From: Escherichia coli
GTDB taxonomy: Bacteria; Pseudomonadota; Gammaproteobacteria; Enterobacterales; Enterobacteriaceae
Reading direction: 5' to 3' (one strand)
Assembly: GCF_048403405.1 (NCBI RefSeq)
Contig: NZ_CP183129.1
DNA length: 64,000 nt
Shown: one piece after another, positions 61 to 16,209 of the stretch
Layout of the letters: each line of letters opens with the position of its first letter
Numbering within the stretch: the stretch's first letter is position 1
The notes under the pieces: generated by a model
What the model was told of the DNA's origin: nothing
Databases searched by the model: none
What the model saw: the letters and a program-made list of their open reading frames with translations, nothing else
Program-made: the position numbers and the translations under genes

Positions 61-915
61 TTACACCAACGCCCCGTAAATCGTCAGTAGCGCAATTACC
101 ACCACGACCACGAACGAGGTTTTCTTCGCCATGGAAACCGCTGCCTTCGGCGTCTCCACCTTATCGACATGCGGTTCACGCGCCAGAGAGAACTGTGCCA
201 GACGCGTTAATACCTGATATTGCGAAGTATGGAAATCACCCAGCGAAGCAAACCAGGCCGGTAACGCTTTCTCCCCATGACCGATCAAGGCATATACCAC
301 ACCCGCAAGACGAACCGGCACCCAATCCAGTACATGAAGCACGGCATCAATGCCGGACTGTAAACGATGATGCGGCGTCTGGTAACGCGCCAGCCAGTAT
401 TGCCATGCACGCAAAAACGCATACCCCATCAGCGTAACGGGTCCCCAGGTTCCCCCCACAATCAGCCAGAACAACGGAGCAAGATAAAAACGAAAGTTAA
501 TCCACAGCAATGCATTTTGCAGCTCACGCAAATACTCACGTTCATCGCAGCCTGCCGGGACGCCGTGAATCATGGTGAGTTCGCCAGCCATCGTGGCACG
601 GGCATGGCTATCATTACGTGAAGCAGCTGTCAGATAAGCATGATAATGAAGACGAACTTTACCTGCGCCAATACACAGCAAACCAATCAGCAGCCACACC
701 AGCAGCGTGGGAACGTTGAACAATACACCCTGCAATGCGCGTAACAGTAAAAAAGTCACGCCCATCGCAATAATGGTCATGCCTAATGTGCGCCCGAGAG
801 AAAAATGTTTCACCCGCCGAAAGAACGCTTCAAGACGATGATCAAGCTGCCAGTGCTCGCCCAACTTAAACAGGCGCTCGAAAATTAACACCAGTAAGGT
901 TGTAAATAGCGTCAT
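61..915 (-). CDS. ampE: AmpE inner-membrane protein (284 aa; start at MTLFTT, internal to the 297-aa track ORF)
   Basis: ORF track 61..954; translation matches AmpE; 4-bp overlap with ampD stop. Confidence 0.93.
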
Positions 916-1463
916 GTTGTCTCCTTGCTGACCAGCGCACGAAACCGTGCCCAATCAAATGCAGGGCCGGGATCGGTTTTCCGATCCGGCGCAATATCAC
1001 AATGGCCCGTCATGTTATTAGCGATATCTGGATAGCGATCAATCAGTGCCCGCGTAACCGCCGCAAGCTGTTGATACTGCGCATCGGTATACGCCAGCGT
1101 ATCGGTGCCTTCCAGCTCAATCCCAATAGAAAAATCATTGCAGCGTTCGCGCCCCTGATACTGAGAGACTCCGGCATGCCAGGCACGTTTATCGAAAGGA
1201 ACATACTGGACTATTTCACCATCGCGGCGAATCAAACAGTGAGCGGAGACGCGCAAATGGGCGATCTCAGCAAAGAAAGGATGTTCCTGCGGATCAATAG
1301 TTCCAGTGAATAATGCGTCGATCCACGGACCGCCAAACTCGCCTGGCGGCAGGCTAATATTGTGCACCACCAGCAGGGTGGGTGTTTCGTCATCCGGGCG
1401 GCAATCGTAATGTGGTGAGGGAACGCGGCGCGCGCCAACCAGCCACCCCTGTTCTAACAACAT
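912..1463 (-). CDS. ampD: AmpD anhydro-N-acetylmuramyl-L-alanine amidase (183 aa)
   Basis: ORF track 912..1463; full-length match to AmpD. Confidence 0.95.
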
Positions 1464-1490
1464 GCAGGATCTCCTTATATGTGGTGCTAA

Positions 1491-2444
<954 letters not shown>

Positions 2445-2646
2445 TTGCTGACAGATTTATCCGCTCCATCGCGGGCGGATAATCTCCCCTTTCCCAACTT
2501 TCTTCGTAACGCCTCGCAAATTTCTTGTCTTTCGCTGCAACGTAATAAAAAACTCCGGAAGCTGCTTTCCCGTTTCGTTTTTTGCCCCTCGCTTGTGCTG
2601 ATGGCGTTTGCCAAAGTAGCGCCAACCAAATCAAGGAGCGAAACAA

Positions 2647-3087
2647 ATGGACAAGCAACGCGGTTTTACACTTATCGAACTGATGGTGGTTATTGGCATC
2701 ATTGCCATTTTAAGCGCCATTGGTATTCCCGCTTATCAAAACTACCTGCGCAAAGCCGCACTCACCGACATGCTACAAACCTTTGTGCCTTACCGTACCG
2801 CCGTAGAGTTGTGTGCGCTGGAACATGGTGGATTAGATACCTGCGACGGTGGCAGTAATGGCATCCCCTCGCCTACCACTACCCGCTATGTTTCAACCAT
2901 GAGTGTGGCAAAGGGCGTGGTGTCGCTGACCGGGCAAGAAAGTCTCAATGGGCTAAGCGTCGTCATGACGCCGGGTTGGGATAACGCAAACGGCGTCACC
3001 GGTTGGACGCGCAACTGCAATATTCAAAGTGACAGCGCATTGCAGCAAGCCTGCGAAGATGTCTTCCGCTTTGATGACGCCAACTAA
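2647..3087 (+). CDS. ppdD: Type IV prepilin-like protein PpdD (146 aa)
   Basis: N-terminal GFTLIELMVVIGII prepilin leader/cleavage motif; position upstream of hofB-hofC. Confidence 0.93.
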   Translation: MDKQRGFTLIELMVVIGIIAILSAIGIPAYQNYLRKAALTDMLQTFVPYRTAVELCALEHGGLDTCDGGSNGIPSPTTTRYVSTMSVAKGVVSLTGQESLNGLSVVMTPGWDNANGVTGWTRNCNIQSDSALQQACEDVFRFDDAN

Positions 3088-3096
3088 GGAGCGGCA

Positions 3097-4482
3097 ATGA
3101 ATATTCCACAGCTCACCGCCCTGTGTCTGCGTTATCAGGGAGTCTTGCTGGATGCCAGCGAAGAGGTGGTTCATGTTGCGGTGGTCGATGCCCCTTCGAA
3201 TGAACTACTGGACGCATTGCATTTCGCTACCACCAAACGTATTGAGATCACCTGCTGGACGCGCCAACAAATGGAAGGTCACGCCAGTCGCACACAACAG
3301 ACATTGCCCGTAGCTATTCATGAGAAGCATCAGCCCAAAGCAGAGTTGCTGACTCGAACGTTACAATCTGCGCTGGAACAACGCGCGTCTGATATTCATA
3401 TCGAACCAGCGGACAATGCCTACCGCATACGCTTGCGTATCGACGGCGTATTGCATCCTTTACCGGATGTTTCACCGGATGCCGGAGTCGCATTAACCGC
3501 CAGATTAAAAGTGCTGGGGAACCTGGATATTGCGGAACATCGCCTGCCGCAGGACGGGCAATTCACTGTCGAACTGGCAGGAAACGCCGTCTCATTTCGT
3601 ATTGCGACCTTACCATGTCGGGGTGGTGAAAAGGTGGTATTAAGGTTGTTACAGCAGGTGAGTCAGGCACTGGATGTCAACACGCTTGGAATGCAGCCGT
3701 TACAACTGGCGGACTTTGCTCATGCCTTGCAACAACCACAGGGACTGGTGCTGGTAACAGGCCCTACAGGCAGCGGCAAAACGGTCACGCTTTATAGTGC
3801 CCTGCAAACGCTGAATACCGCTGACATTAATATTTGTAGCGTCGAAGATCCGGTTGAGATCCCCATAGCCGGACTAAACCAGACGCAAATCCATCCGCGT
3901 GCCGGACTCACCTTTCAGGGCGTTTTGCGTGCGTTATTGCGCCAGGACCCTGACGTCATCATGATCGGAGAGATCCGCGATGGCGAAACGGCAGAAATTG
4001 CCATAAAAGCCGCACAAACCGGTCACCTGGTGTTGTCCACGCTACACACCAATTCCACCTGCGAAACGCTGGTGCGTTTACAGCAAATGGGCGTTGCTCG
4101 CTGGATGCTCTCATCGGCACTTACGCTGGTAATAGCCCAGCGTCTGGTACGTAAACTTTGCCCACATTGTCGCCGACAGCAAGGGGAGCCCATCCATATT
4201 CCAGACAATGTATGGCCATCGCCGCTGCCCCACTGGCAGGCACCCGGTTGTGTACATTGCTACCACGGTTTTTATGGTCGCACGGCCTTATTTGAAGTTC
4301 TGCCCATAACACCGGTCATACGTCAGCTTATTTCCGCTAATACCGACGTTGAATCGCTGGAAATGCACGCCCGACAGGCGGGTATGCGTACGCTTTTTGA
4401 AAACGGCTGCCTGGCCGTGGAGCAAGGCTTAACCACCTTTGAAGAGTTAATCCGCGTATTGGGGATGCCGCATGGCGAGTAA
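3097..4482 (+). CDS. hofB: Type IV pilus assembly ATPase HofB (461 aa)
   Basis: Walker A GPTGSGKT and secretion ATPase family features; order ppdD-hofB-hofC. Confidence 0.94.
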   Translation: MNIPQLTALCLRYQGVLLDASEEVVHVAVVDAPSNELLDALHFATTKRIEITCWTRQQMEGHASRTQQTLPVAIHEKHQPKAELLTRTLQSALEQRASDIHIEPADNAYRIRLRIDGVLHPLPDVSPDAGVALTARLKVLGNLDIAEHRLPQDGQFTVELAGNAVSFRIATLPCRGGEKVVLRLLQQVSQALDVNTLGMQPLQLADFAHALQQPQGLVLVTGPTGSGKTVTLYSALQTLNTADINICSVEDPVEIPIAGLNQTQIHPRAGLTFQGVLRALLRQDPDVIMIGEIRDGETAEIAIKAAQTGHLVLSTLHTNSTCETLVRLQQMGVARWMLSSALTLVIAQRLVRKLCPHCRRQQGEPIHIPDNVWPSPLPHWQAPGCVHCYHGFYGRTALFEVLPITPVIRQLISANTDVESLEMHARQAGMRTLFENGCLAVEQGLTTFEELIRVLGMPHGE

Positions 4483-5674
4483 GCAACTCTGGCGCTGGCA
4501 TGGCATAACCGGCGACGGTAATGCGCAAGATGGGATGCTATGGGCAGAGAGTCGTGCTTTACTGCTTATGGCACTACAGCAACAGATGGTTACCCCACTT
4601 AGCCTGAAGCGAATCGCCATCAATTCTGCGCAGTGGCGAGGAGATAAAAGCGCGGAAGTCATTCATCAACTGGCGACGCTACTCAAAGCCGGGTTAACGC
4701 TTTCTGAAGGGCTGGCACTGCTGGCGGAACAGCATCCCAGTAAGCAATGGCAAGCGTTGCTGCAATCGCTGGCGCACGATCTCGAACAGGGCATTGCTTT
4801 TTCCAATGCCTTATTACCCTGGTCAGAGGTATTTCCGCCGCTCTATCAGGCAATGATCCGCACGGGGGAATTGACTGGTAAGTTAGATGAATGTTGCTTT
4901 GAACTTGCTCGACAGCAAAAAGCCCAGCGTCAGTTAGCCGATAAAGTGAAATCAGCGTTGCGTTATCCCATCATCATTTTAGCGATGGCAATCATTGTGG
5001 TTGTGGCAATGCTGCATTTTGTGCTGCCGGAGTTTGCTGCTATTTATAAGACCTTCAACACCCCACTACCGGTACTAACGCAGGGGATCATGACGCTGGC
5101 AGACTTTAGTGGCGAATGGGGCTGGCTGCTGGTGTTGTTCGGCTTTCTGCTGGCGATAGCCAATAAGTTGCTGATTCGCCGCCCGACCTGGCTTATCGCG
5201 CGGCAGAAATTGCTGTTACGCATCCCGATTATGGGTTCACTGATGCGGGGACAAAAACTCACGCAGATCTTTACGATTCTGGCGCTGACTCAAAGTGCAG
5301 GCATTACTTTTTTACAGGGCGTAGAGAGCGTCAGAGCAACAATGCGCTGCCCGTACTGGGTGCAACTTCTGACACAAATCCAGCACGATATCAGTAACGG
5401 TCATCCCATCTGGCTGGCGCTAAAAAATACCGGTGAGTTTAGCCCGCTCTGTTTGCAATTAGTGAGAACAGGAGAGGCATCCGGCTCGCTGGATCTCATG
5501 TTAGACAACCTCGCCCATCATCATCGGGATAACACACTGGCGCTGGCGGATAACCTCGCAGCCTTACTGGAACCGGCGTTGCTGATCATAACGGGAGGAA
5601 TTATCGGTACGCTGGTGGTGGCAATGTATCTGCCCATTTTCCATTTAGGCGATGCAATGAGTGGAATGGGATAA
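4472..5674 (+). CDS. hofC: Type IV pilus platform protein HofC (400 aa)
   Basis: GspF/PilC-like membrane protein; 11-bp overlap with hofB. Confidence 0.94.
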   Translation: MASKQLWRWHGITGDGNAQDGMLWAESRALLLMALQQQMVTPLSLKRIAINSAQWRGDKSAEVIHQLATLLKAGLTLSEGLALLAEQHPSKQWQALLQSLAHDLEQGIAFSNALLPWSEVFPPLYQAMIRTGELTGKLDECCFELARQQKAQRQLADKVKSALRYPIIILAMAIIVVVAMLHFVLPEFAAIYKTFNTPLPVLTQGIMTLADFSGEWGWLLVLFGFLLAIANKLLIRRPTWLIARQKLLLRIPIMGSLMRGQKLTQIFTILALTQSAGITFLQGVESVRATMRCPYWVQLLTQIQHDISNGHPIWLALKNTGEFSPLCLQLVRTGEASGSLDLMLDNLAHHHRDNTLALADNLAALLEPALLIITGGIIGTLVVAMYLPIFHLGDAMSGMG

Positions 5675-5700
5675 CGCTGGCGTGTTGCTCCACGCCAGCG
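5675..5700. terminator. Hairpin between convergent hofC and guaC stops
   Basis: Inverted repeat cgctggcgtg-ttgctc-cacgccagcg immediately after the hofC stop. Confidence 0.5.
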
Positions 5701-5708
5701 TTGGGAGA

Positions 5709-6752
5709 TTACAGGTTGTTGAAGATGCGGTTTTCTTGTTCCAGCACACGGATAAATGTGGTGCGCTTGGTCAACTCTTTCAGGCGTGAAGCCCCAACGT
5801 ATGTACAAGCTGAACGCAGGCCGCCCAAAATATCACGCGCGGTATTTTCAACCGGGCCTCGCAGCGGCAGCTTAACGGTTTTACCTTCTGCTGCGCGATA
5901 TTCCGCAACGCCGCCAACGTGACGTTTCATCGCAGACTCGGAGCTCATGCCGTAGAACAGCATAAATTTCTCGCCGTTCTCCTCAACGATGCGACCGCCG
6001 CTCTCTTCGTGGCCCGCCAGCATACCGCCAAGCATGACGAAATCGGCACCGCCGCCAAAGGCTTTCGCGACATCGCCCGGCGTGGTGCAGCCACCGTCGC
6101 TGACGATCATTCCGCCCAGACCGTGCGCAGCATCGGCACATTCGATTACCGCAGAAAGTTGCGGATAACCGACGCCTGTTTTGACGCGAGTTGTACAAAC
6201 AGAACCTGGGCCAATGCCAACTTTAACGATATCAGCACCGGAGAGGATAAGCTCCTCACACATTTCACCAGTCACTACGTTGCCAGCACAAATGGTTTTG
6301 GTCGGCCACGCTTCACGCGCTTTCGCAACGAACTGCACGAAGTGTTCGGAATAACCATTCGCCACGTCAATACAAACGAAGTTTAATGCCGGGTTCAGGT
6401 CGAGAATCTGTTTAGTTTTTTCGAAATCCGCATCAGACGTGCCGGTAGAAACCATCACATGTTTCAGCACATCAGCGGAAGAATTGTTGATAAACGCTTG
6501 CCACTCTTCGACAGAATAGTGTTTATGCACAGCAGTCAAAATATCAAAAGAAGCCAGCGCAGAGGCCATAGAAAATGTGCCTACGGTGTCCATATTTGCG
6601 GCGATAATCGGCACGCCGGACCAGCTCTGACCTGAATGTTTGAAGGTGAATTGACGTTCCAGTTCAACATCGGAACGGCTTTTAAGAGTGGAGCGTTTAG
6701 GGCGGATGAGAACGTCTTTAAAACCTAACTTCAGATCTTCTTCAATACGCAT
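5709..6752 (-). CDS. guaC: GMP reductase GuaC (347 aa)
   Basis: ORF track; IMPDH/GMP reductase family, full length. Confidence 0.96.
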
Positions 6753-8553: not shown

Positions 8554-8748
8554 GTCTGATGCGACGCTGGCCTGATAAGACGCGGGCAGCGTCGCATCAG
8601 GCATCGTGTGCAAATGTCGGATGCGATGTGAACGCCTTATCCGACCTACAAGACCTTACATATCAACGTATTAAAATTATAGATACTGATAAGACGCGCC
8701 AGCGTCGCATCGGACATCTTGTGCAAATGTTGGATGCGGCATAAACAC
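8554..8748. repeat. BIME/REP cluster (several palindromic units) between yacG and mutT
   Basis: Repeated gcctgatgcgacgc / gcgtcgcatcaggc / ggatgcg...cttatccgacctac palindromic-unit motifs. Confidence 0.8.
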
Positions 8749-9161: not shown

Positions 9162-9189
9162 AAAAAAGGCGCAGAATCCTGCGCCTTTT
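9162..9189 (-). terminator. Rho-independent terminator downstream of secA
   Basis: Stem aaaggcgcag/ctgcgccttt followed by a T-run on the minus strand. Confidence 0.6.
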
Positions 9190-9206
9190 ACTTCAACTGT
9201 TAGCTT

Positions 9207-11912
9207 TTATTGCAGGCGACCATGGCACTGCTTGTATTTTTTACCAGAACCGCACGGGCAAGGATCGTTACGTCCTACTTTACGTTCACCGGTTTGCGCC
9301 GCCAGTGCAGCAGCGGCTGCAGAGTCGTCATCCTGATGGCTAAGCTGCTGCATCTGCGCTAAACGCTCGGCTTCCATACGACGCTGTTGTTCCAGCTCCT
9401 CAACCTCTTCAGGCATACGTACCTGAACTTTGCTCAGCGTACTGATAACTTCATATTTCAACGACTCCAGCATCGCTGCAAACATGGAGAACGATTCACG
9501 TTTGTATTCCTGCTTCGGATCTTTCTGTGCATAGCCACGCAGGTGGATACCCTGACGCAGATAGTCCATCGCTGCCAGGTGCTCTTTCCACAGGGAGTCA
9601 AGCGTTTGCAGCATGACGCCTTTCTCGAAGTGACGCATCATCTCTGCACCAACCACTTCTTCTTTACGCTGATACACTTCGATGGACTGCGCCAGAATGC
9701 GCTCACGCAGCGTCTCTTCATGCAGTTCTGGTTCTTTATCCAGCCACTCGGCAATTGGCAAATCAAGGTCGAAATCGTTCTTCAGACGTTCCTGCAGCCC
9801 CGGAATATCCCACATTTCTTCCAGCGACTGTGGTGGAATGTAGGCATCAATGGTCGCTTTGAACACATCTTCACGAATGCTGTTGATGGTTTCGCTCACA
9901 TCGCTGACATCCAGCAGTTCGTTACGCTGGGAGTAAATGGCGCGACGCTGATCGTTAGCCACGTCATCATATTCCAGCAGTTGCTTACGAATGTCGAAGT
10001 TACGACTTTCAACTTTACGCTGGGCGTTGGCAATCGCTTTAGTCACCCACGGGTGTTCAATGGCTTCGCCTGGCTTCATACCCAGTTTACGCATCATGCC
10101 GGATACTCGGTCGGAAGCAAAAATACGCATCAGCGCATCTTCCATCGACAGGTAGAAACGGGAAGAACCAGCATCCCCCTGACGACCAGAGCGACCGCGC
10201 AACTGGTTATCGATACGACGGGATTCGTGACGCTCGGTACCGATGATATGCAGGCCACCTGCTGCCAGTACCGCATCGTGACGTACCTGCCAGTCGGCTT
10301 TAATTTTTTCAATTTGCTCTGCGGTCGGATTTTCCAGCGCGGCAACTTCTGCCTGCCAGCTACCACCGAGCACAATATCTGTACCACGACCCGCCATGTT
10401 GGTCGCGATAGTCACCGCAGCCGGATAACCTGCCTGAGCAACAATCGCCGCTTCGTTGGCGTGGAATTTGGCGTTCAGGACGTTGTGCTTAATACCGGCT
10501 TTGGTCAGTTCGTTTGACACCAGCTCAGATTTTTCGATGGAGATAGTACCCACCAGCACCGGCTGGCCTTTCGCAGTACGTTCTTTGATATCTTCAATGA
10601 TCGCCTGAATTTTTTCTGCTTCAGTCATGTAGACCAGGTCCGGCAGATCTTTACGAATCATTGGACGGTTGGTCGGAACAACGACGGTATCCAGCTTGTA
10701 GATGGAGCTGAATTCGAAAGCTTCGGTATCAGCAGTACCGGTCATCCCCGCCAGTTTTTCATACAGACGGAAGTAGTTCTGGAAGGTGATCGAAGCCAGC
10801 GTTTGGTTTTCGTTCTGGATCTGCACACCTTCTTTCGCTTCCACAGCCTGGTGCAGACCATCGGACCAGCGACGGCCCTGCATGGTACGACCGGTGTGTT
10901 CGTCAACGATGATAACTTCACCATCTTTAACGATGTAGTCGACGTCACGGGTAAACAGCGCATGAGCGCGCAGCGCCGCCGTTACGTGGTGCATCAGCAT
11001 GATGTTTGCCGGAGAGTACAGAGACTCCCCTTCATCCATGATGCCTTCTTTCACCAGCAGTTCTTCAATCAGGACCAGACCACGTTCGGTCAGGTTCACC
11101 TGGCGAGATTTTTCGTCCACCGAGAAGTGGCCTTCGCCCTGGAAGGTTTCGGAGTCTTCTTTTTCCTGACGGATCAGGTGCGGAATAATTTTATTCACGC
11201 GTTTATACATTTCCGAGCTGTCTTCTGCCGGGCCGGAAATGATCAGCGGTGTACGCGCTTCATCGATCAGGATGGAGTCCACTTCGTCCACCAGCGCATA
11301 GTGCAGTTTACGCTGTACACGTTCTTCAGGGCTGAACGCCATGTTATCGCGCAGGTAGTCAAAGCCGTATTCGTTGTTCGTACCGTAAGTGATGTCAGCT
11401 GCGTAAGCTTCACGCTTCGCCGGTGCTGGCATGCCCGGCAGGTTGATACCGACAGTCAGGCCAAGGAATTCAAACAGCGGACGGTTGTTTTCGGCGTCAC
11501 GTTGCGCCAGGTAGTCGTTGACGGTAACAACGTGTACGCCCTTACCGGTTAATGCGTTCAGGTAAGCAGGCAGCGTTGCGGTCAGGGTTTTACCTTCACC
11601 GGTACGCATTTCGGCGATGCAGCGTTCGTTAAGAACCATACCGCCGAGTAACTGAACGTCGAAGTGACGCATACCAAAGACGCGCTTACTTGCCTCACGC
11701 ACCACGGCGAAAGCTTCCGGGATCAGATTTTCCAGCACTTCGCCTTTTTCCAGACGTGCACGAAACTCTGCGGTTTTCCCTTTCAGTTCTTCGTCGGAGA
11801 GTTTTTCCATCTCCGGTTCCATGGCATTGATGATGTTAACCACTTTGCGCATCCGGCGCAGGGTGCGATCGTTACGACTACCGAAAACTTTAGTTAATAA
11901 TTTGATTAGCAT
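9207..11912 (-). CDS. secA: Preprotein translocase ATPase SecA (901 aa)
   Basis: Full-length ORF, C-terminal zinc site [14 protein letters not shown]. Confidence 0.98.
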
Positions 11913-13734: not shown

Positions 13735-14886
13735 TTAATCAGCTTGCTTACGCAGGAATGCTGGGATATCCAGATAATCCGGCTCTTTCGCAGTTTGCGG
13801 CGCATTGTCATTCACAACTTTAGCAACCGGCTTCTGCTCCTGGGTCAGCGGAGCCATCCCGTGCTGCTGGTAGCGATCCATCACTGGCTGCTGAACCTGC
13901 TTATTGGTCACCAGAGTGATTTCAGGACGTTTGTCCATGCCGATACCTGTCGCAACAACAGTTACACGCAGCTCGTCATTCATATCCGGGTCAAGAGAAG
14001 TACCGATAACCACAGTCGCGTTGTCGGAAGCAAATGCACGGATGGTGTTACCTACCGTTTCGAACTCATCCAGACGCAGGTCGAAGCCCGCTGTGATGTT
14101 AACCAGCACGCCGCGCGCGCCAGACAGGTCGATATCTTCAAGCAGCGGAGAAGAGATAGCCATTTCAGCAGCTTCTTCCGCACGGTCTTCACCGCTCGCC
14201 ACGCCAGAACCCATCATTGCGTAGCCCATTTCAGACATTACGGTGCGTACGTCTGCAAAGTCCACGTTCATCAAACCCGGACGAGTAATCAGTTCGGCGA
14301 TACCTTGCACAGCGCCTTTGAGTACATCGTTCGCTGCGCCAAACGCATCCAGCAGGGAGATACCGCGGCCCAGAACTTTCAGCAGTTTGTCGTTCGGGAT
14401 AGTGATCAGAGAGTCCACATGTTTGGACAGTTCAGTGATCCCCTGCTCCGCGAATGCCATACGCTTCTTGCCTTCAAAGTTGAAAGGCTTAGTGACGACA
14501 GCAACGGTCAGGATACCCAAATCTTTTGCCACTTCAGCGACGACTGGAGCTGCGCCTGTACCGGTACCACCACCCATACCCGCAGCAATAAAGACCATGT
14601 CTGCACCTTCCAGCGCCGCACGCAGTGCATCGCGATCCTCATCAGCCGCATTACGGCCAACTTCTGGATTAGCGCCAGCGCCCAGTCCTTTGGTGATACC
14701 GCTACCGATTTGAATCGTCTGTCCAACCGCTGTTTTACGCAGCGCTTGTGCATCGGTATTTACCGCGAAGAATTCAACACCTTCAATGCGCTCGCGCACC
14801 ATGTGTTCAACAGCATTACCGCCGCCGCCGCCGACGCCGATGACTTTAATCACCGCGTCATTGGTAAGTTCCATTGGTTCAAACAT
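13735..14886 (-). CDS. ftsZ: Cell division GTPase FtsZ (383 aa)
   Basis: Tubulin signature GGGTGTG; full length. Confidence 0.98.
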
Positions 14887-14946
14887 AGTTTCTCTCCGAT
14901 TTGTGCCTGTCGCCTGAGGCCGTAATCATCGTCGGCCTCATAAAAA

Positions 14947-16209
14947 TTAAAACTCTTTTCGCAGCCAACTATTGAGTCGCTTGATCCACGAGCCAACTGA
15001 TGCTGTAACACGTTTTTCTACTTCAGCTTCACCGTTAAGATGTGACTCTTTTCCATAGTGAAGCAATCCCACCGCCGTCGAATAATACGGCTCCTGAGCA
15101 TAATCCGTTAAACCGGTAATGTTCAGCGGCGCGCCGATACGCACTTGCGTATGAAACACGCGCTGAGCACAGGCTGCAAGACCTTCAATCTGCGCTGCGC
15201 CACCAGTTAATACAATGCCTGCCGCCAGGTGATGTTTAACCCCTTGTTGGCGAAGCTTTTCCTGCAACTGCAATATCTCTTCGTTGACCAGGTTGAGCAG
15301 CTCGGTATAGCGCGGCTCGATCACCTCTGCCAGGGTCTGACGTTGCAGACTCCGCGGCGGACGACCGCCTACGCTCGGCACTTCCACGCTCTCATCTTTT
15401 CCAACGATGGAACCCAGCGCACAACCGTGGCGAACTTTAATCGCTTCGGCGTCGCTTGGCGGCGTGCCAAAGGCGTAAGCGATATCACTGGTCACGACAT
15501 TGCCAGCATAAGGAATTACCTTAGTGTGGCGCAATGCCCCACCGGTATAAACGGCGATATCCATTGTACCACCACCGATATCGACGACGCAGACACCCAG
15601 TTCACGTTCATCTTCCGTCAATACCGAATAACTTGATGCCAGTCCAGCAAATATCAGTTGGTCAACTTTCAGCCCACAACGTTCAACCGCTTTGACGATG
15701 TTTTTCGCCATATCGTTGTGACATGTGATCAGGTGCACTTTTGCCTGCATCCGCACGCCCGAAAGTCCTACCGGATTCTTGATCCCTTCCTGATAGTCAA
15801 TCGCATACTCTTGCGGGATCACATGCAGCACACGGTGTTCATCGCGCACACGCACCGATTTCGCGGTATGGACGACGTTTTCCACATCTTCTTGCGTTAC
15901 TTCTTCTTCAGAAATAGGCACCATACCAATTTCATTCTGGCAGCTGATGTGCTTACCAGAAAGCGCCAGATATACCGAAGAGATCTGACAATCTGCCATC
16001 AATTCTGCCTGGTCAATGGCGCGTTGTACGCACTTGACCACGGATTCGAGGTCGTTCACCCCGCCTTTATCCATACCACGCGACGGGCAGCTGCCCACGC
16101 CAATGATATTGACCATACCGTCGGGCAGAACTTCCCCTACTAAAGCGGCAACCTTCGCGGTACCAATCTCCAGTCCTACTACCAGTTTTCTGTCCGTCGC
16201 CTTGATCAT
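14947..16209 (-). CDS. ftsA: Cell division protein FtsA (420 aa)
   Basis: Actin-like ATPase; order ftsQ-ftsA-ftsZ. Confidence 0.98.

Follow-up and report, generated by a model that had tools for sequence, protein, structure and literature searches.

An intact ppdD-hofB-hofC operon in an espY2-carrying Escherichia coli strain is the known, species-wide type IV pilus operon

Three adjacent open reading frames (ORFs) in a stretch of 64,000 nucleotides of E. coli DNA (hereafter the window) raise the question of whether they represent the complete ppdD-hofB-hofC type IV pilus operon, and whether its intactness in a strain that also carries an effector gene has any significance. The ORFs are located on the plus strand at positions 2647-3087 (ppdD or hcpA, type IVa major prepilin, 146 aa), 3097-4482 (hofB, assembly ATPase of the PilB/GspE family, 461 aa) and 4472-5674 (hofC, inner-membrane platform protein of the PilC/GspF family, 400 aa). 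None of them contains an internal stop codon and their lengths equal those of b0108, b0107 and b0106 of K-12 MG1655, respectively, with protein identities of 99.3 % for PpdD, 98.5 % for HofB and 97.3 % for HofC. The flanking genes are nadC and guaC, and the gene order is collinear with that of K-12. Seven E. coli genomes in RefSeq contain this DNA at 100 % identity, annotated as ppdD, gspE (hofB) and hofC, and differences from other strains were overwhelmingly synonymous. Therefore, the three ORFs are not a chance set. We are highly confident that this stretch is the chromosomal E. coli ppdD-hofB-hofC operon at its usual site between nadC and guaC, encoding core parts of a type IVa pilus. The identity of all three proteins was already settled by solved structures and equivalog models. 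A previous sequence-only reading had proposed these gene names, three full-length ORFs, a prepilin cleavage motif in PpdD and a Walker A motif in HofB; the ORFs and both motifs are indeed present, and the names are borne out by the identity to K-12, the Pfam domains and the NCBIfam equivalogs.

The ppdD start codon is preceded at a distance of 8 nt by a Shine-Dalgarno sequence, AAGGAG (2633-2638, plus strand), as read from the sequence. PpdD begins with a leader of six residues, MDKQRG, followed by the mature N-terminus FTLIE with G-1, F+1 and E+5. This processing site and the N-terminal stretch behind it (MDKQRG followed by FTLIELMVVIGIIAILSAIG) constitute a class III signal peptide with a hydrophobic alpha-1 segment. 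The protein matched the Pfam families N_methyl (39.9 bits) and Pilin as well as TIGR02532, and scored 268.8 bits on its NCBIfam equivalog (cut-off 138). Cysteines are found at positions 50, 60, 118 and 130 (mature numbering), together with H54. The pairs C50-C60 and C118-C130 and H54 typify the enterobacterial PpdD subclass (bioRxiv 10.1101/2021.04.14.439816), and PpdD carries all of these residues, with both disulfides being predicted. All residues reported to be critical are kept (E5, K30, D35, E53, H54, E92, E131, D132, R135, D137 and the four cysteines). Compared to K-12 there is a single substitution, A84T, and 138 of 140 residues match the cryo-EM model of the EHEC PpdD pilus (6GV9).

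The Shine-Dalgarno sequence of hofB, AAGGAG (3086-3091, plus strand), overlaps the ppdD stop codon. HofB was matched by Pfam T2SSE (E = 1e-146) and by the HofB-specific NCBIfam model NF007755 with 821.8 bits, well above the cut-off of 617. The protein harbours the complete motif set of a PilB-type assembly ATPase, namely the Walker A motif GPTGSGKT at aa 222-229, the Asp box EDPVE at 250, the Walker B motif VIMIGEIRD at 287, a His box at 308 and a tetracysteine (zinc) motif made up of CPHC at 355 and CVHC at 385. None of the seven substitutions relative to K-12 falls within these motifs. PGAP/RefSeq labels the hofB product 'type II secretion system protein GspE', and one could read the genes as type II secretion components that build a pseudopilus for protein secretion. 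The ATPase and platform families of type II secretion systems and type IV pili are homologous and both HofB and HofC gave strong E-values on the GspE and GspF models, but HofB reached only 456.7 bits on the GspE equivalog TIGR02533 (cut-off 630.25) and HofC 264.4 bits on the GspF model TIGR02120 (cut-off 424). Moreover, the 'GspE' label was taken over from how the HofB-specific model NF007755 is named, and the operon is flanked by nadC and guaC rather than by gspC, gspD or gspG-M. The first gene encodes a pilin whose filament was solved as a T4a pilus, and among solved structures HofB is closest to the PilB assembly ATPases (E = 5e-105). With the equivalog cut-offs missed and gsp neighbours absent, we rejected a type II secretion identity as extremely unlikely.

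HofC, the third component of the type IVa pilus operon, contains two T2SSF domains (Pfam, two stretches, E = 3e-57), as is characteristic of PilC-type polytopic platform proteins, and three hydrophobic segments around aa 167-185, 217-235 and 369-387. It scored 658.5 bits on NCBIfam NF007861 (cut-off 401), and its closest solved relative is PilC in the Myxococcus T4aP machine (3JC8, E = 1e-43). Eleven substitutions separate it from the K-12 protein. The first 11 nt of hofC are also the last 11 nt of hofB, stop codon included, an arrangement suggestive of translational coupling. Downstream, the convergent spacer of 34 bp between the stop codons of hofC and guaC is filled by a perfect 13-bp hairpin (AACGCTGGCGTGG...CCACGCCAGCGTT; 5672-5703, strand not assigned) with a folding energy of -28.8 kcal/mol (z = -3.5 compared to shuffled sequences) and without a U-tract. 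This hairpin probably functions as a shared 3′-end or terminator structure for both genes. It was absent from the output of a consensus intrinsic-terminator scan, which gave 7 matches against 4.2 expected; these we took as chance matches, as each falls inside a coding region or has the wrong orientation. An Rfam scan of the whole window revealed no RNA family inside 2300-5900.

We then consider the regulation of the operon. Upstream of ppdD a candidate CRP-S (Sxy-dependent CRP) site, the 22-mer TTCTTCGTAACGCCTCGCAAAT, is located at 2500-2521 on the plus strand, with the core TTCGT-N6-TCGCA at 2503-2518. This core is the sole match with three or fewer mismatches to TGCGA-N6-TCGCA in the gap between nadC and ppdD and carries C6 and G17, the bases that define CRP-S sites, while no CRP-N-like core was found between the two genes; an upstream core with C6/G17 and no canonical CRP-N site is the arrangement of the CRP-S regulon. 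A fragment of the ppdD promoter was bound by CRP in EMSA (Cameron & Redfield 2006, PMC1635313). When the primers were mapped, the window equivalent of this CRP-shifted fragment was 2433-2563, which includes the candidate site. In addition, the site is invariant across seven diverse strains, with the same sequence in K-12, O157:H7 and four others, and none of the 9 positions that differ from K-12 in the 202-bp promoter region falls within it. A relaxed CRP-S pattern was not enriched across the window (34 found, 46 expected), so the support for the site comes from its position and conservation and not from the motif match alone. From the motif, the position in the EMSA fragment and the conservation, we infer that 2503-2518 is the CRP-S site of the published ppdD fragment. 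A scan for sigma-70 consensus promoters in 2300-5900 found none (3.3 +/- 2.2 expected) and gives no transcription start site; the result fits an activator-dependent promoter. In K-12, Sxy induces ppdD about 90-fold in a CRP/cAMP-dependent manner and the operon is silent in LB-grown cells (PMC1635313), in agreement with the earlier description of the operon as silent in laboratory K-12.

How unusual is an intact operon? All but two of the 5426 complete E. coli genomes (5424) carry ppdD-hofB-hofC. ORF lengths were identical in K-12 and five diverse comparison strains; the comparison loci had been sampled without regard to indels, and every one kept the same lengths. The one exception among the checked loci was SMN152SH1, in which hofC is frameshifted and hofB is 12 nt shorter. 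An intact copy is thus nothing out of the ordinary for this strain, as nearly all E. coli genomes have the operon and only one of the loci checked was damaged. Silence in standard culture and the SMN152SH1 locus could be taken as signs of a decaying relic, in which the ORFs are open by chance and the proteins no longer work, and both dS and dN of hofB and hofC are somewhat above those of neighbouring genes. Against such decay, dN/dS of the operon was 0.05-0.13 in six strain comparisons over about 3 kb, not far from the 0.03-0.05 of the flanking housekeeping genes nadC and guaC, every catalytic motif is intact, ORF lengths and presence are conserved as described above, and the K-12 and EHEC versions function when expressed. 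Considering the low dN/dS and the intact motifs, we rejected pseudogene decay, which we regard as very unlikely. Like nearly all of the species, this strain keeps the three genes intact under purifying selection.

The allele itself is rare, with a match of at least 99 % in just 15 of the 5424 genomes. Two short tracts in hofB and hofC show a dense and almost purely synonymous divergence from K-12, giving the operon an imported-looking mosaic structure. Conceivably, such an allele might change expression or activity and lead to natural pilus production, perhaps aiding colonisation beside EspY2. We give this idea next to no credence, as the sequence offers no hint of it; neither the promoter nor the CRP-S site departs from the common type, and the substitutions spare the known motifs.

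The sequence-only reading had further suggested that the intactness of the operon beside an effector-like islet could be of interest. The strain does carry espY2, a T3SS effector gene that we found in 841 of the 5426 complete genomes (about 15 %). However, with the operon in 5424 of 5426 genomes it pairs with any accessory gene, so that its co-occurrence with espY2 is automatic and uninformative, and the suggestion fails. The two loci are also about 38 kb apart, with core genes in between, among them the dcw cell-division cluster and the ilv and leu operons. Given this distance, the core genes in between and the universal presence of the operon as opposed to the restricted one of espY2, a functional link between them was rejected.

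Based on the named protein families and on published work in K-12 and EHEC, the following mechanism can be proposed. A weak activator-dependent promoter would fire only once the CRP-S site, some 136 nt ahead of the ATG, is occupied by both cAMP-CRP and Sxy/TfoX. The six-residue PpdD leader would be cut off after Gly6 by a prepilin peptidase whose gene lies elsewhere, and HofB, presumably as a hexamer docked on HofC, would use ATP to drive the extraction of mature pilins from the membrane and their polymerisation. The growing fibre is expected to cross a HofMNOP-HofQ complex, with PpdA, PpdB, YgdB and PpdC as the minor pilins that prime it; the genes for all of these proteins are at other loci. 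The peptidase, the HofMNOP alignment complex, the HofQ secretin, the minor pilins and Sxy are all encoded outside the 64-kb window. At the species level, hofMNOPQ and ppdAB-ygdB-ppdC were each present in 5425 of 5426 complete genomes, and both are therefore very likely present in the source strain. The assembled machine may mediate low-level DNA uptake and, in EHEC, may also serve as an adhesive pilus (HCP).

[quoted passage not shown] The first of these agrees with the literature: upon sxy induction processed PpdD is made, and DNA uptake occurs at a low level in a hofQ-dependent manner (PMC3330819). The nutrient phenotype on the other hand is disputed, as three laboratories were unable to confirm it according to a review (PMC6135910). 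The literature names no natural condition that induces sxy. Expression of EHEC ppdD-hofBC in K-12 brings PpdD to the cell surface (PMC2649431), and EHEC builds PpdD pili on Minca medium (PMC2920817). The genes might serve mainly as an adhesion or virulence pilus of the HCP type instead of a DNA-uptake machine. EHEC HCP contributes to adherence, invasion, biofilm formation, twitching and cytokine induction (PMC2920817), hofQ mutants of UPEC are poorer at kidney colonisation (PMC2649431), PpdD is nearly identical to the EHEC pilin (138/140), and with espY2 the strain possesses a gene for a T3SS effector. Nevertheless, UPEC pili were not visible under many conditions, the sole conserved regulatory element that we found is a competence-type CRP-S site, and commensals and laboratory strains show the same degree of conservation of the operon. 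We consider a mainly adhesive role possible but rather unlikely; the two roles are not mutually exclusive, and the identity of the genes is unaffected by the choice.

Taken together, the operon is real, correctly identified and already known. The genes, the regulation, the pilin structure and the reconstituted function of this species-wide core operon have all been published before, and intact genes in one more genome leave untouched the question of when, if ever, E. coli naturally turns on Sxy and the pilus. The outcome is useful as a negative one, in that the suggested link to the espY2 islet is uninformative.

In comparison with known systems, the operon is closest to b0108-b0106 of K-12 MG1655, with which it shares the position between nadC and guaC, the gene order, the strand and the ORF lengths; the difference lies in 1, 7 and 11 amino acid substitutions in PpdD, HofB and HofC, respectively, none of them in a recognised motif. 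The hcpABC genes of EHEC O157:H7, encoding the hemorrhagic coli pilus (6GV9 for the pilus, 6GMS for the pilin NMR structure), are orthologous, and PpdD shares with the EHEC pilin the cysteines of the two disulfide pairs as well as the residues of the calcium site, whereas the mature residues 78 and 115 are Thr here and Ala in EHEC. EHEC EDL933 assembles pili on Minca-type media. With the pilABCD operons of Haemophilus influenzae and Vibrio cholerae, which belong to the Sxy/TfoX-CRP regulon, the operon shares the order pilin, ATPase and platform protein, as well as a putative upstream CRP-S-type site and, as shown in K-12, Sxy-dependent induction (PMC1635313). It differs in that pilD, encoding the prepilin peptidase, is missing, since guaC directly follows hofC. 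Unlike these competence systems, E. coli does not possess pilF2, and its DNA uptake is very low. Compared to PilB of the T4aP systems of Pseudomonas, Myxococcus and Geobacter, HofB lacks some 100 residues at its N-terminus (alignments start at HofB 76-88, corresponding to PilB 176-201) and stays under the cut-off of the PilB equivalog (487 bits, cut-off 675.65), but the ATPase core and the fold family of the platform protein are shared with the PilB and PilC proteins of these species.

The ppdD-hofB-hofC type IV pilus operon occupies 2647-5674 on the + strand, between the annotated genes nadC (1551-2444, +) and guaC (5709-6752, −). Its open reading frames, ppdD (2647-3087, +, 146 aa), hofB (3097-4482, +, 461 aa) and hofC (4472-5674, +, 400 aa), had been described as intact in the sequence-only reading, which is borne out by our ORF list and by lengths equal to those in K-12 MG1655 with zero internal stops. 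At the protein level, PpdD is 99.3% identical to its K-12 MG1655 counterpart (A84T being the sole change), HofB 98.5% (7 substitutions) and HofC 97.3% (11 substitutions). All three exceeded the cut-offs of their specific NCBIfam equivalogs (268.8 bits against 138 for PpdD, 821.8 against 617 for HofB and 658.5 against 401 for HofC). Pfam recognised N_methyl and Pilin in PpdD, T2SSE in HofB (E = 1e-146) and two stretches of T2SSF in HofC. By megablast, seven genomes match 2400-5900 at 100% identity, and the genes there are named ppdD, gspE (= hofB) and hofC. E. coli TUM14771 (CP128875) is 99.96-99.98% identical in reverse orientation across the full 64-kb window, and because this near-identity spans the whole window we could use its annotation as a map. 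The operon is the K-12/EHEC operon itself and not a mere relative.

The protein motifs were read directly in the translations. PpdD carries the leader MDKQRG followed by FTLIE, confirming the prepilin cleavage motif noticed earlier, and has cysteines at positions 50, 60, 118 and 130 (mature numbering). The Walker A motif previously attributed to HofB is GPTGSGKT at aa 222-229; it is accompanied by an Asp box (EDPVE), a Walker B motif (VIMIGEIRD), a His box (TGHLVLSTLHT) and CPHC...CVHC. HofC has three hydrophobic segments. In the cryo-EM pilus model 6GV9, the PpdD chain of EHEC shares 138/140 residues with the mature pilin encoded here, which keeps all residues critical for PpdD stability, calcium binding or assembly in the 6GV9 follow-up study. 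The nearest solved relatives of HofB are PilB assembly ATPases, and that of HofC is PilC of the Myxococcus machine.

On the + strand, an AAGGAG lies 8 nt 5′ of the ppdD ATG, and a second one, 5 nt 5′ of the hofB ATG, shares bases with the ppdD stop codon. The hofC start precedes the hofB stop by 11 nt, an arrangement typical of translational coupling. The stops of hofC and guaC are convergent; an inverted repeat with perfect 13-bp arms (5672-5703), which begins at the hofC stop codon, takes up the 34-bp spacer between them. The predicted hairpin has a free energy of −28.8 kcal/mol (z = −3.5), with no U-tract on either strand. No sigma-70 consensus promoter was found across 2300-5900, against 3.3 expected. 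The nadC-ppdD spacer is free of canonical CRP cores and contains a single core resembling CRP-S, the Sxy-dependent type of CRP site (TTCGT-N6-TCGCA, 2503-2518). This site is flanked on both sides by the K-12 primers that Cameron & Redfield (2006) used for EMSA, which correspond to 2433-2563 here, and the 22-mer of the site is unchanged in K-12, O157:H7 and four further diverse strains. Since the relaxed CRP-S pattern is no more frequent than chance in the entire window, the predicted site rests on position and conservation, not on the motif match.

Among 5,426 complete E. coli genomes, 5,424 contain the 2400-5900 region by megablast. For the operon, 5,424 genomes likewise reach at least 80% query coverage, at 95-100% identity. 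In 38 of 40 evenly spaced sampled records the match is exactly 3,041 bases long, and all three ORF lengths are equal in five diverse fetched loci. A record chosen on purpose for a match 11 bases short, SMN152SH1 (CP024618), has a hofC annotated as frameshifted and a hofB shorter by 12 nt, in frame (758-3324 of the fetched locus); this is natural decay of the operon, so inactivation happens, but rarely. Nei-Gojobori dN/dS values against six strains were 0.05-0.10 for ppdD, 0.06-0.11 for hofB and 0.09-0.13 for hofC, compared to 0.05 and 0.03 for the flanking nadC and guaC. These ratios indicate clear purifying selection and not the drift of a dead operon. The pilus also needs the partner loci hofMNOPQ and ppdA-ppdB-ygdB-ppdC, each found in 5,425/5,426 genomes. 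Given the near-universal presence, constant match span, equal ORF lengths, low dN/dS and universal partner loci, intactness is unremarkable.

It had been suggested that intactness beside an effector-like islet could be of interest. This islet is espY2 (43570-44139, −), which encodes the 189-aa T3SS effector EspY2 and stands as a single gene between the thiBPQ TPP riboswitch and sgrR. It is found at ≥80% coverage in 841/5,426 genomes, including O157:H7 (~95% identity). Because the pilus operon is universal (5,424/5,426), its co-occurrence with espY2 is automatic, and the suggestion falls. In some genomes the espY2 site is annotated as pentapeptide-repeat proteins. Elsewhere in the window, a broken IS3-family transposase lies between djlA and rluA (~60275-61632, −; ORFs of 240 and 176 aa, annotated in TUM14771 as a pseudogene with internal stop). 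Rfam gave gathering-level matches to naRNA4 (8569-8646, −, near yacG), STnc40 (9162-9231, −, near mutT) and PssrA (14878-14967, −, near lpxC/ftsZ), besides the expected Leu leader (36469-36618), SgrS (41377-41603) and TPP riboswitch (44380-44479).

The operon allele belongs to a minority: identity across the whole operon reaches ≥99% in only 15 genomes, compared to 369 and 441 for the flanks. The excess divergence is concentrated in tracts of hofB (3940-4140) and hofC (4740-4940), each with 11-20 differences per 200 bp from every comparison strain; relative to K-12, both together cause one amino-acid change, T156A in HofC. The hofB tract likewise represents a minority haplotype: 98 genomes match it at ≥99% and 4,450 at only 90-95%. 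Strain WP4-S18-ESBL-07 shows no difference from the window in ppdD and its promoter, and differs at 38 sites in hofB. Such a mosaic looks like the ordinary product of recombination in the core genome of E. coli.

The operon was said to be silent in laboratory K-12, in agreement with undetectable ppdD in LB; Sxy raises ppdD ~90-fold, CRP and cAMP are required, and CRP weakly binds the ppdD promoter fragment (PMC1635313). Upon sxy induction processed 15-kDa PpdD appears, and together with lambda Red a few transformants per microgram DNA are obtained, which are lost in a hofQ mutant (PMC3330819). EHEC produces PpdD pili in Minca medium (PMC2920817), and its ppdD-hofBC cluster gives surface PpdD when expressed in K-12 (PMC2649431). 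Of the two roles linked to the operon earlier, DNA uptake agrees with the hofQ-dependent transformants; growth on DNA as nutrient is disputed, three laboratories having failed to replicate it according to a review (PMC6135910). The operon is an ordinary feature that was known before, and the earlier interpretation of it is otherwise supported. In this strain we observe the gene content, motifs, gene coupling, a conserved CRP-S-like site and selective constraint. If it behaves like its orthologues, the operon would be activated through CRP-S, a peptidase encoded elsewhere would cleave the leader, HofB and HofC would drive polymerisation and the pilus would exit via HofQ.

In RefSeq/PGAP, HofB bears the product name 'type II secretion system protein GspE', taken from the title of model NF007755. 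HofB scores below the cut-offs of both the PilB equivalog and the true GspE equivalog, so this name is a labelling artefact, not evidence of type II secretion, and automated reading may be misled by it. The N-terminus of HofB is ~100 residues shorter than that of canonical PilB. Functionally, the operon probably resembles the competence pilus operons pilABCD of Haemophilus and Vibrio, except that it lacks pilD.
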